In this document: one piece after another, positions 37,447 to 39,871 of the stretch
Position numbering within the stretch: position 1 is the stretch's first letter
How the letters are laid out: each line of letters begins with the position of its first letter
NCBI GenBank assembly: GCA_964511375.1
Contig: CAZEEW010000002.1
Span: 36,157 to 100,156, forward strand
Length of the DNA: 64,000 bases
Reading direction: 5' to 3'
Origin: an uncultured Gammaproteobacteria bacterium
GTDB taxonomy: Bacteria; Patescibacteriota; Patescibacteriia; Magasanikbacterales; GWA2-37-8
Made by a program: the position numbers and the translations under genes
Notes under the pieces: model-generated
The model's database searches: none
What the model was told of the DNA's origin: nothing
What the model saw: only the letters and a program-made list of their open reading frames with translations

Positions 37447-37477
37447 CGAGAAAAGGAGCATTAAAGTTCAAGAAACA

Positions 37478-37512
37478 AAAACCCAGCGCTAATTGCACTG
37501 GGTTTTATTGTG
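37478..37512 (+). terminator. Terminator after asnS (aaaacccagcgc-taatt-gcactgggttttattgt)
   Basis: Near-duplicate of secY terminator. Confidence 0.6.
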
Positions 37513-37525
37513 TTCCTTGATCTTA

Positions 37526-37583
37526 CGCTTCGCAGTTGATCTGAAATAACAATTGTTATTATCTCAGACCGACACTGCGAAGC
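37526..37583. repeat. Inverted repeat cgcttcgcagt … actgcgaagc enclosing a perfect 16-bp palindrome AATAACAATTGTTATT (37545-37560)
   Basis: Seen directly; operator-like symmetric site at the edge of GC-rich islet 5. Confidence 0.6.
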
Positions 37584-37612
37584 ATCGGACGCGCACACGC
37601 GCATGTTGGGGA

Positions 37613-38002
37613 TCAGAATCGGAGGGGGGTCGATGCCAGCTTGTCCCGTAAGTCCTTGAGGACCTGGTTTCGGTAGGGGAAGTACTCTGACCCGGTGCTG
37701 AGCTCGAGCCACATGCACCGCTCGCCGTGCTGTAGGTAGACTTCTACCGCGTCGTTGGAACAGCTTGGTGCACACCAGGGATCGATCTTGTACATCTCTG
37801 GGATGCGATCGAAGCTGTTCTCCAGCGCGTAGAAGACACCCTTGTCACAGTAAGACTTGACGACGAGCAGACGCCCTTCAGTTTGCGAGCGCAGAACTTG
37901 GTTGCTCTCGCGGTACAGCCGTGGACAAAACCACCCGAACAAGAACCAGATCACCGCGATCGTCGTCGCCGTCTTCATCGCCGCCGAGGTAAGCCTTTTC
38001 AT
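37613..38002 (-). CDS. GC-rich islet 5: 129-aa signal-anchored/secreted protein with 4+ Cys
   Basis: GGAG 7 nt upstream of ATG; N-terminal hydrophobic MKTATTIAVIWFLFGWF; ~60% GC. Confidence 0.45.
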   Translation of the reverse strand: MKRLTSAAMKTATTIAVIWFLFGWFCPRLYRESNQVLRSQTEGRLLVVKSYCDKGVFYALENSFDRIPEMYKIDPWCAPSCSNDAVEVYLQHGERCMWLELSTGSEYFPYRNQVLKDLRDKLASTPLRF

Positions 38003-38119
38003 CACTTAACTCCATGCGCCATCCAGGCGCTCTGTTGTCGAGGAACAAGTGATTATAGCAAAGAGAGAGAGAGTTGTCAAGATGGTCTAACAGAATTGTC
38101 TTTAATATTACCCAAAAAA

Positions 38120-38156
38120 TAACAAAACAAGCCTGGTTTCGAGGCTTGTTTTTTAT
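38120..38156. terminator. Bidirectional terminator (caagcct-ggtttcg-aggcttg) after metallophosphoesterase gene
   Basis: 7-bp stem with A-run upstream and T-run downstream. Confidence 0.65.
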
Positions 38157-38168
38157 CCTTTTTCGCTA

Positions 38169-39131
38169 TTATTTTAAATTTAACTGTACCACTTCAGGTG
38201 CGGCCATAAAGCGTAAAGGTCCACCAGATTCGCCCGCTCCAACTGAGGTATAAATTGGAATGCCTTTGTAGTAATTTAATCCACGATAATAGTTCTTCCA
38301 AAGGTCAATCTCCGCATCGCCCAAAGGTCCAATTAGTGGCAACCAGACCTGCCCACCGTGGGTATGTCCGGATAAAACAAGATCTGGATGCTTCGTGTTT
38401 TCTGGCCAGGTGAGAATGCCGTCAGGGTTATGCACTAAGAAAATTAAGGGAATATTTTGATCCCAGTCTTTAAGTTCCTCAAAATTAGGATTACCACCCC
38501 AGATATCGTCTAGACCAAAGATGCAAATTTTTTGGGACTTAATTTCCGGGCAAATCAAGTTGTTCTTTAGAAGGGGGATACCAATTTGTTCCATTTCTTT
38601 TACCACCTCAGGTGCACGGTTGCCGGTTTGTCTTTCCGGAAATTTAATCACTCGGCGACTAACTCCATATTCGTGATTACCCAAGACATAATATGTCGGA
38701 TATTTACCAACCAAATTTTCTAACGGTGCTAAGTATTTTTCTTCACCAGGAGGGGTGCCTTCGTTGTCAATCATATCACCGCCAAAGAGTATTAAATCAG
38801 GCTTAAGTTCATCAACTCTTTTTGCAACTTTCTCCATCCAGTCAGCTTTTTTATGGTTACCGACTTGTGGATCAGTTATTAGAATCACTTTTAAGTCTGA
38901 TATTTCTCTTATGTTTATATCCACTCTTGTTGTTACTAGGCGCCAGGGTTCGATGAAACGAGCATAAATTAGGGCTAGCAATACTAAAAAAGTAATTGAA
39001 ATTAAGGTCCATCCGAACCAGCGGTGTTTGCCTAAGAAATAGTCGGGTCTTTTCTGGTCGCGAAAAAAAATAGCGATGAGAACCAAGGATACTACCATTA
39101 GACCGACAGATAAAATAGAGTACAGATTCAT
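38169..39131 (-). CDS. Membrane-anchored calcineurin-like metallophosphoesterase
   Basis: N-terminal TMs; GDMIDNEG, GNHEY, GHTHGGQ motifs. Confidence 0.8.
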   Translation of the reverse strand: MNLYSILSVGLMVVSLVLIAIFFRDQKRPDYFLGKHRWFGWTLISITFLVLLALIYARFIEPWRLVTTRVDINIREISDLKVILITDPQVGNHKKADWMEKVAKRVDELKPDLILFGGDMIDNEGTPPGEEKYLAPLENLVGKYPTYYVLGNHEYGVSRRVIKFPERQTGNRAPEVVKEMEQIGIPLLKNNLICPEIKSQKICIFGLDDIWGGNPNFEELKDWDQNIPLIFLVHNPDGILTWPENTKHPDLVLSGHTHGGQVWLPLIGPLGDAEIDLWKNYYRGLNYYKGIPIYTSVGAGESGGPLRFMAAPEVVQLNLK

Positions 39132-39132
39132 G

Positions 39133-39705
39133 TTAATCTTTGACTAGTTTAATCAATTTAATAAAAATGTCAGTATTTTTTGAAATACGAATATTATATC
39201 TAATTTTACCTTTTGTTTTGATTTTGTAAAGATGTGCTGGTATAGAAAGAGATTCTAACATTTTCATTACATCTCGAGCTAAGTTAGGTATCATAGACAC
39301 AAAATTTACCATTTTGTATCCTCTGTCGATATATATTGACCCGTCTGTTTGGAATAAACCACGTAAACATTCAATTACTGTTTGTTCCTTTTTCATAATC
39401 CAGGTTGGAACCGACACTCCTTGTTTTTCTTTTGATCCACCTAGGGTTTTCCAGCCTAATAAACTTTCCCATTTGTTAGAATAGCAGCTTATATCTTTGC
39501 AATTTCTTTTAATGTTAATTATGTTAACTTTATTCCTTGGCATAAATGATCTTAAGGAATCGGCTATTGTTCGGATTAAATTCGGGTACTTAAGATCACA
39601 GGAAATTCTAAGACGGACCGCCCTACGATTAGGGTTAGAAAGATTGCCGTCCCCAAGTGCAAGGCCGGTAATATACGCCAGAAGCTTTTCCTCCTTTTTA
39701 AGCAT
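39133..39705 (-). CDS. Free-standing double-motif LAGLIDADG homing endonuclease
   Basis: Two LAGLIDADG motifs: LAYITGLALGDGNL and LRGLFQTDGSI; 190 aa; starts 7 nt after tRNA-Leu 3' end. Confidence 0.8.
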   Translation of the reverse strand: MLKKEEKLLAYITGLALGDGNLSNPNRRAVRLRISCDLKYPNLIRTIADSLRSFMPRNKVNIINIKRNCKDISCYSNKWESLLGWKTLGGSKEKQGVSVPTWIMKKEQTVIECLRGLFQTDGSIYIDRGYKMVNFVSMIPNLARDVMKMLESLSIPAHLYKIKTKGKIRYNIRISKNTDIFIKLIKLVKD

Positions 39706-39711
39706 AAGTCG

Positions 39712-39793
39712 TGCCGATGGTGGGAATCGAACCCACAGGCCTTACGGCACACGATTTTGAGTCGTGCATGTTTACCAATTTCATCACATCGGC
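39712..39793 (-). tRNA. tRNA-Leu (anticodon CAA), type II with long variable arm
   Basis: Hand-folded: acceptor GCCGATG/CATCGGC, anticodon stem CACGA/TCGTG, loop CTCAAAA, variable hairpin GCC-GTAA-GGC, T-arm GTGGG-TTCGATT-CCCAC; CCA not encoded. Confidence 0.75.
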
Positions 39794-39871
39794 ATTTTGT
39801 GACTGGCATTATACCCGAATTTTGCTTGGTTGTCAATTGTATGGTATAATTACTGCACTTAAAGAATAGTT

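Follow-up and report, generated by a model that had tools for sequence, protein, structure and literature searches.

A free-standing LAGLIDADG endonuclease gene beside tRNA-Leu genes in Patescibacteria and phages, a probable intron-less homing endonuclease

The tRNA-Leu(CAA) locus and the encoded endonuclease

The stretch of DNA analysed here, called the window, comprises 64,000 nucleotides of contig CAZEEW010000002.1 (GenBank assembly GCA_964511375.1, positions 36,157 to 100,156) from an uncultured bacterium of the Magasanikbacterales within the Patescibacteriota, or Candidate Phyla Radiation (CPR). An open reading frame (ORF) of 190 amino acids with two LAGLIDADG motifs lies immediately downstream of a tRNA-Leu(CAA) gene and is read in the same direction. 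A preliminary description made from the sequence alone had pointed out this ORF, its motifs LALGDGNL and LFQTDGSI and the type II tRNA-Leu(CAA) beside it. Both motifs and the length are as described, and ARAGORN and Rfam agree on the tRNA and its orientation. The spacing, given there as 7 nt, is 6 nt by the Rfam boundaries and 5 nt by those of ARAGORN, which places the tRNA at 39711-39793(-). The features of the locus are listed below in the order in which they would be transcribed.

39808..39836, minus strand: consensus sigma-70-type promoter, TTGACA-17-TATAAT, matching the consensus at 12 of 12 positions
39712..39793, minus strand: type II tRNA-Leu(CAA), discriminator A at 39712, no encoded CCA (Rfam RF00005, 61.7 bits)
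39706..39711, minus strand: 6-nt spacer CGACTT between the discriminator A and the ATG, read from the sequence
39133..39705, minus strand: ORF of the 190-aa two-motif single-chain LAGLIDADG endonuclease (ATG start, TAA stop)
39640..39675, minus strand: LAGLIDADG motif 1, YITGLALGDGNL, residues 11-22, with the catalytic Asp19
39334..39369, minus strand: LAGLIDADG motif 2, CLRGLFQTDGSI, residues 113-124, with the catalytic Asp121
38169..39131, minus strand: metallophosphoesterase gene (Pfam Metallophos)
38124..38152, no strand assigned: bidirectional terminator-like hairpin, the first at an intergenic position downstream of the tRNA

The -10 hexamer of the promoter ends 14 nt upstream of the 5′ end of the tRNA, and this is the only promoter-like site positioned to drive both the tRNA and the endonuclease ORF. 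The spacer CGACTT is too short for a ribosome-binding site. A single nucleotide separates the endonuclease stop from the start of the metallophosphoesterase (TAA-C-ATG), which is a co-transcribed host gene outside the insertion discussed below. No terminator-like site at an intergenic position is found between the tRNA and 38124; the hairpin at 38124-38152 is the first such site past the tRNA and thus closes a tRNA–endonuclease–phosphoesterase unit. A predicted read-through expression of the ORF from the tRNA promoter is supported by this layout of promoter and terminator. Upstream of the tRNA, in divergent orientation, are ParA and ParB, followed by RelA/SpoT. As stated in the preliminary description, the ORF is located in neither an intron nor an intein: the tRNA upstream is complete, the gene downstream is separate, Rfam assigns no intron family to the ORF, and neither rRNA nor intron was found by Rfam in the window.

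The protein matches the Pfam profile LAGLIDADG_3 (PF14528), which the preliminary description had named as a check, with 47.4 bits against a cut-off of 22.5 (E = 2.4e-12), and the PADLOC HEase and PHROG endonuclease profiles also match. The motif cores are G-LALGDGNL at residues 14-22, with Asp19, and G-LFQTDGSI at residues 116-124, with Asp121. Both aspartates and 42 further columns are invariant among 30 aligned sequences, and Asp19 aligns with the aspartate of the GDG in motif 1 of I-DmoI. A sequence search against the PDB gave nothing significant, and therefore a fold search was needed. An AlphaFold (AF2) model built from 30 homologues shows two halves of alpha-beta-beta-alpha-beta-beta-alpha topology, with a predicted local distance difference score (pLDDT) of 93.5 and a predicted template-modelling score (pTM) of 0.90. 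Its closest structure in Foldseek is I-DmoI (E = 1e-8, template-modelling score, TM, 0.72-0.77), with the endonuclease domains of PI-PfuI and PI-SceI next in the list. In this model many of the invariant columns fall within the beta strands used by the LAGLIDADG fold for its contacts with DNA. The ORF is an intact gene for a single-chain LAGLIDADG endonuclease of the I-DmoI type, with the site-specific DNA cleavage of the superfamily, which leaves 4-nt 3′ overhangs, predicted from its motifs and model. It shares with I-DmoI the size of about 190 residues, the pseudo-symmetric two-domain fold and the two motifs with acidic catalytic residues. I-DmoI, however, is encoded in an archaeal 23S rRNA intron and has an rDNA target, whereas the present gene is free-standing at a tRNA gene, and the two proteins are 18-20% identical.

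The WhiA models of Pfam and NCBIfam are also weakly matched by the protein, and some sources name its homologues WhiA. WhiA (DUF199), a domesticated DNA-binding protein, likewise has two LAGLIDADG-like domains, but it carries a C-terminal helix-turn-helix (HTH), has lost its catalytic residues and is a fixed core gene. No C-terminal HTH is found in the 190 residues of the present protein, whose fold model consists of two LAGLIDADG domains alone. It retains both aspartates, its gene is absent from most related loci, and WhiA appears only at rank 50 in the Foldseek list.

Linkage to tRNA-Leu genes and empty sites

A word-indexed protein search returned at least 879 matching proteins, which have most positions in common. 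The best 120 of the 879 are about 174-283 residues long, most of them near 190, and are 53-63% identical apart from the self-match; the named sources among these 120 are Patescibacteria. In a library clustered at 50% identity the family comprises 23 representatives at E ≤ 1e-30. For the linkage to the tRNA, 80 species-representative genomes were sampled, the loci of which, like the metagenome and phage loci below, carry L numbers. A tRNA-Leu(CAA) gene stands directly against the ORF in 73 of the 75 loci with sufficient flanks. It is immediately upstream on the same strand in 68 of the 80 loci, a recurrence among species-level genomes that puts the pairing far above chance, directly downstream on the same strand in three (L035, L056 and L085) and adjacent yet inverted in two (L021 and L043). 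In two loci (L029 and L071) it is absent despite full flanks, and five are not judgeable because a contig end cuts the upstream side. Measured from the ARAGORN end of the tRNA, the first in-frame start lies within 5 nt in 42 of 71 cases and within 22 nt in all but four. ParB, ParA, RelA, MiaA, PAP2, TopA and GlyA are the recurrent neighbours in the related loci.

Two peculiarities of these loci are to be noted. In L014, L036/L126, L065 and L082, the stretch from the tRNA end to the conserved LAYIIG helix contains no ATG, GTG or TTG, and the reading frame remains open upstream through the tRNA; their start codon may be non-canonical. Elsewhere, gene callers have given family members N-terminal extensions that consist of translated tRNA, for example ...GSSPTSGT in P0055. 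In L054 (3614-4043) and L049 (3916-4078), ARAGORN reports four overlapping tandem units of a "tRNA-Ser(ACT)" with an odd anticodon and a period of 89 nt, located beside a tRNA-Thr(TGT) just downstream of the endonuclease gene.

A HMMER search beyond the CPR family found proteins of about 250 residues, 29-42% identical and most of them 30-38%, in which the LAGLIDADG core is joined to an N-terminal HTH-like segment. One of them, P0165, is encoded on a phage-looking contig with many short ORFs and an array of 10 tRNA genes, and starts 12 nt past a tRNA-Leu(UAA). A scan of IMG/VR with this group of about 250 residues gave 22 loci. The ORF is directly against a tRNA-Leu in 17 of the 19 phage loci with a solid match, L195 included, and in 13 of 15 when near-duplicates are left out. 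The anticodon is UAA, CAA or UAG, and the tRNA lies on either side of the ORF, often within 1-40 nt. In several of the phage arrays Leu genes are a minority of the tRNA genes. Because the phage relatives share it, adjacency to tRNA-Leu characterises the clade as a whole and is no frozen accident of CPR gene order. The viral members are only these more distant, HTH-bearing relatives: close homologues were found neither in IMG/VR, searched with patterns of the CPR family, nor in a GenBank phage collection. Several phage contigs with HTH-LAGLIDADG relatives (L197 and L204-L207) also carry transfer-messenger RNA (tmRNA) genes beside their tRNA-Leu genes.

The same locus exists with and without the ORF in related Parcubacteria-type CPR genomes. 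A metagenome collection was scanned with a 31-nt core of the tRNA, which yielded 108 loci, 88 of them informative, that is, with enough downstream sequence; as the tRNA core alone was the query, this sampling is independent of the ORF. The ORF directly follows the tRNA in 27 of the 88 loci, including one stub (L119) and two ended by a contig edge, and is missing from the other 61 (69%). The flanking ParB, ParA, RelA, TopA and MiaA have the same arrangement in empty loci as in occupied ones. Of all these loci, L169 and L157 are the nearest to the window, and both are empty. Their proteins are 97-98% (ParA) and 94% (asparaginyl-tRNA synthetase, AsnRS) identical to those of the window, and RelA of L169 is 96% identical. 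In both, a spacer of 77-78 nt separates the tRNA from the same phosphoesterase gene and contains a terminator-like hairpin and a promoter-like TTGACC...TACAAT. Where MiaA is the downstream gene, it starts 1-8 nt past the tRNA in the empty state and about 579-598 nt past it in the occupied state, and the insertion is thus essentially the ORF alone (about 580 bp). Several occupied loci have the start of MiaA and the stop of the endonuclease overlapping as ATGA or TTGA.

No remnants of the ORF were detected in the empty sites with the family hidden Markov model (HMM) on six-frame translations. Two empty loci have a weak LAGLIDADG ORF, 27% identical, about 4 kb off on the opposite strand (L160 9474-9959 and L174 4723-5208). 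Only two damaged copies are observed: L013 has an internal stop, and in L119, scored as occupied, the first ~35 residues alone remain and are followed by a terminator. On a neighbour-joining tree of ParB from 39 tRNA-ascertained loci, presence and absence of the ORF take 11 Fitch changes against 11.2 ± 1.2 after shuffling; the distribution is scattered and without phylogenetic clustering. The gene is therefore not universally conserved at this position; universal conservation would, according to the preliminary description, have suggested a domesticated function. Since it is absent from 61 of 88 loci, the nearest relatives included, the gene is a dispensable insertion and not a fixed domesticated one. 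Of the two readings offered there, a mobile insertion or a domesticated nuclease, that of an insertion is supported, and domestication is weakened but keeps some probability because selection on the gene is strong.

In several occupied loci, a diverged partial copy of the 3′ part of the tRNA is found directly past the ORF stop. Local alignment with 200 control windows per locus detects such copies at p ≤ 0.01 in 8 of 86 loci, for example with lengths of 39 nt in L140, 38 nt in L078, 35 nt in L120, 20 nt in L027, 16 nt in L007 and 15 nt in L034. With a tRNA-Leu HMM, nhmmer detects partial copies in three occupied loci (L120, L140 and L078) and two empty ones (L151 and L177), against none in 432 control segments. 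Except in L078, that is, in L120, L140, L151 and L177, the copy begins within the anticodon loop, at tRNA positions 31-35. A second tRNA fragment is nested in L140. The copy in L078 differs from the resident tRNA by paired changes in the T stem (GTGGG/CCCAC against GAGGG/CCCTC), and because these changes are compensatory, it derives from a different functional allele.

Other insertions are observed at the same tRNA end. In L086 (3571-3805), L165 and L104, a GC-rich insert of 134-281 nt, measured up to its terminal repeat, follows the tRNA-Leu and terminates in 19 nt that repeat the tRNA 3′ end perfectly and in direct orientation. In L086 and L165 the insert opens with the tRNA 3′ end in reverse complement, interrupted by a hairpin, and these two inserts have a conserved inner block in common, GGAGYCATGTCCCCGCAGGGACAGG. 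ARAGORN has no match in the three inserts and Rfam nothing credible. Candidate identities are a structured RNA and a small element that uses the same hot spot for insertion.

Homing and the alternative explanations

The composition of the gene and its inheritance were compared with those of its flanks. In the window the ORF has a guanine-plus-cytosine (GC) content of 0.34 against 0.44 for the flanks. A bias of the ORF toward AT relative to its flanks is seen in 99 of 101 loci, with a mean difference of 8.1 points; its GC content nevertheless follows that of the host (r = 0.83). The identity between endonucleases rises with that between the ParA proteins of the same loci, from 54% at a ParA identity of 45-55% to 62% at 75-85%, 70% at 85-95% and 85% at 98%. 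The most similar endonuclease pairs have similar flanking proteins in nearly all comparable cases. Exceptions are the pairs of L027 with L065 and with L043, in which the endonucleases are 71% identical and ParB only 41-45%. They hint at a transfer between hosts with divergent ParB, neither case being clear-cut. In close pairs the ratio of nonsynonymous to synonymous substitution rates (dN/dS) is 0.04-0.15 at dS 0.7-2.8. The gene is under selection and mostly co-diverges with its hosts, yet at the level of the family its distribution looks random through frequent gain and loss. A lower identity of the window phosphoesterase to that of L169 (72%, against 94-97% for ParA and AsnRS) was considered as a co-conversion tract and rejected; as all flanks are just 71-81% identical in DNA, the phosphoesterase is merely a faster-evolving gene.

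We interpret the ORF, with a probability of roughly 0.68, as a free-standing homing endonuclease gene specialised on tRNA-Leu genes and expressed by read-through from the tRNA promoter, in the manner of SegB of phage T4. In its favour are the family and fold of the protein, the linkage to tRNA-Leu in CPR and phage loci, the empty sites and their scatter, the partial tRNA copies, the AT-rich composition, the layout of promoter and terminator and the precedent of SegB. SegB, a GIY-YIG homing endonuclease, is encoded by a free-standing gene among the clustered tRNA genes of T4; its recognition site of 27 bp falls within a tRNA gene, and related phages without segB exist (PMC2330249). Both genes are free-standing among tRNA genes under a promoter upstream of the tRNAs, both have related genomes that lack them, and in both cases the tRNA genes of the carrier are not immune by sequence. 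In contrast to the GIY-YIG enzyme SegB, the window protein is of the LAGLIDADG type. SegB relies on a generic T-psi-C motif and cuts several tRNA genes, whereas the present clade is tied to tRNA-Leu. Finally, SegB is a phage gene with demonstrated cleavage; the window copy is on a bacterial chromosome and its cleavage is predicted.

Within the CPR, the closest parallel is provided by the endonucleases of rRNA insertions such as I-ShaI, which share the host group, the superfamily and the homing logic (PMC11270868). These are located inside rRNA introns or insertion sequences and are mostly single-domain LAGLIDADG_1/2 homodimers (PMC11270868), while the window ORF stands between a tRNA and protein genes. 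The same study noted a few LAGLIDADG_3 proteins in the CPR and does not mention tRNAs, and thus reports no tRNA linkage (PMC11270868). The endonucleases in the tRNA-Asn introns of Patescibacteria are of the HNH type, not LAGLIDADG (PMC13011429). No published description of an association between LAGLIDADG genes and tRNA-Leu was found for Patescibacteria or the CPR, for free-standing genes or for phage tRNA clusters. The clade, which stands next to tRNA-Leu across hundreds of CPR genomes as well as phage tRNA clusters, seems not to have been described before.

Several observations weigh against homing. The closest sampled empty alleles, L169 and L157, are only about 78-85% identical to the window in DNA, and polymorphism within a population is therefore not seen; the metagenome set has no pair of occupied and empty loci above ~76% DNA identity. 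The signal of inheritance is mostly vertical, as shown by the rise of endonuclease identity with ParA identity. Strong purifying selection and the rarity of broken copies would look alike for a gene beneficial to the host. The target in the tRNA-Leu gene is a prediction from sequence. An immune tRNA variant in the carriers was looked for and rejected: between 27 occupied and 58 empty alleles there is no discriminating column, and identical tRNAs occur in both states, so that self-protection is not explained in this way. Lastly, no repeat or duplicate of the tRNA-Leu 3′ end was found in the window. A duplicated tRNA-Leu had been suggested in the preliminary description as a mark of target-site homing; the partial copies flanking the ORF in relatives agree with it, and the window does not. 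The objection from identical tRNAs is removed by the precedent of SegB, which can cut the tRNA genes of T4 itself; its authors invoke a tightly limited expression (PMC2330249).

The strongest alternative, which we consider unlikely, is an accessory nuclease or DNA-binding protein selected by the host, that is, a "domesticated" LAGLIDADG protein inherited vertically since an early Parcubacteria ancestor, kept beside tRNA-Leu(CAA) only for the promoter that the two share and often lost in streamlined genomes. The low dN/dS, the 44 invariant columns with the beta-sheet residues that would contact DNA, and the damage limited to L013 and L119 are all in line with such a gene. Furthermore, endonuclease identity tracks ParA with no clear case of transfer between distant hosts, the relA-parB-parA synteny is conserved, and the gene has a GC content in step with that of its host. 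However, a gene kept by the host would not be expected to be missing from 69% of tRNA-matched loci without phylogenetic clustering. Nor does selection for the promoter explain why the adjacency persists without co-transcription (L021 and L043) and with the ORF 5′ of the tRNA (L035, L056 and L085). The position of the phage relatives, also at tRNA-Leu, is not explained by shared ancestry of a CPR operon, some copies are flanked by duplicates of the tRNA half, and the catalytic aspartates are kept, unlike those of WhiA.

Very improbable, in our judgement, is an origin of the ORF as passenger or remnant in an element of the integrase type that integrated into the 3′ end of tRNA-Leu, with the tRNA 3′ repeats as its attachment (att) sites attL and attR. 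Direct repeats of the tRNA 3′ part past the ORF in some relatives, and the perfect 19-nt repeats of the other insertions at the same tRNA end (L086, L104 and L165), would suit such an element. Yet no integrase or recombinase is found near the window ORF, where the adjacent genes are the metallophosphoesterase, ParA and ParB, nor among the recurrent neighbours of the related loci. The inserted DNA amounts to one ORF of ~580 bp. Several repeats begin in the anticodon loop and are diverged, unlike exact att cores, and the window has no repeat. The least probable explanation, to which we attach hardly any weight, is an RNA-directed factor, either a maturase-like helper for CPR group I introns or a processing factor for tRNA-Leu: some LAGLIDADG proteins are maturases, bI3 and I-AniI are among the fold matches and CPR genomes are rich in introns (PMC13011429, PMC11270868), but the adjacent tRNA has no intron, the invariant catalytic aspartates would be needless for a pure maturase, the gene is dispensable in most relatives, and the phage relatives are found in intron-free tRNA arrays.

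Downstream of the phosphoesterase, at 37450-38170, the window contains an islet of ~700 bp with a GC content of 0.51-0.575, compared with ~0.42 for the genome. On the minus strand it carries its own perfect promoter (38080->38052) and an ORF of 130 aa (37613-38005) that is hydrophobic at the N-terminus; terminator-like hairpins flank the islet. The 130-aa ORF has no match in Pfam, PADLOC or PHROG, and Rfam finds nothing credible in the islet. The stretch between phosphoesterase and AsnRS in L169 and L157 does not align with it. The islet is probably a recently acquired foreign gene.

Proposed mechanism and significance

Under the homing interpretation, the enzyme would recognise and cut the tRNA-Leu gene of DNA without the ORF. 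Since several partial tRNA copies have a common start, the cut would probably be made near the anticodon stem-loop. Repair from the ORF-bearing copy would then transfer the ORF, sometimes together with a replacement 3′ half of the tRNA. Between close relatives the flanking homology would be sufficient, with parB/parA on one side and miaA or the phosphoesterase on the other. Between distant lineages the tRNA itself would be the homology, and a duplicated 3′ half would be left behind. The strong tRNA promoter would drive the expression of the ORF, and 3′ processing of the tRNA would release an mRNA with its AUG 0-6 nt from the 5′ end. Self-cleavage would probably be limited by low expression, as proposed for T4 SegB, and not by an immune variant.

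The missing Shine-Dalgarno site of the ORF was considered as a special feature and rejected. A Shine-Dalgarno-like motif is observed in only 6 of the 58 window genes (ORFs of at least 120 aa), and the leaders are A/T-rich; thus the organism initiates translation largely without Shine-Dalgarno pairing. In loci without the endonuclease ORF (L131, L193, L182, L186, L134, L158, L113 and L101), other genes start 0-9 nt past the tRNA-Leu(CAA), among them MiaA, ParB and several further ORFs. This suggests that tRNA processing routinely sets the 5′ ends of mRNAs in these bacteria. As Shine-Dalgarno motifs are rare and other genes also abut the tRNA, the near-leaderless layout is general and not specific to the endonuclease.

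A more far-reaching form of homing is tentative, and we regard it as doubtful: the clade could be a self-contained "tRNA-half-swapping" gene drive, in which the anticodon stem-loop is cut and the cassette is copied together with a replacement 3′ half. If true, the tRNA would be the sole homology needed, and the gene could cross between genera, phage arrays and CPR chromosomes. The displaced 3′ half would stay as a direct repeat and permit precise excision by single-strand annealing, which would account for the abundance of clean empty sites. The tRNA-Leu loci of the CPR and phage tRNA clusters would then owe their shape to one dedicated lineage of nucleases.

The present analysis describes a large and tightly conserved clade of free-standing LAGLIDADG proteins with a specific tRNA gene as its genomic address. 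Intron-less homing at tRNA genes, earlier represented by the GIY-YIG enzyme SegB, would be extended beyond the T-even phages, and the clade is a candidate cause of turnover at tRNA-Leu loci and in phage tRNA clusters. It also offers a naturally diverse panel of compact single-chain meganucleases, probably with one common target. In addition, the locus allows tRNA-punctuated, near-leaderless expression to be tested directly, in bacteria with hardly any use of Shine-Dalgarno sites.

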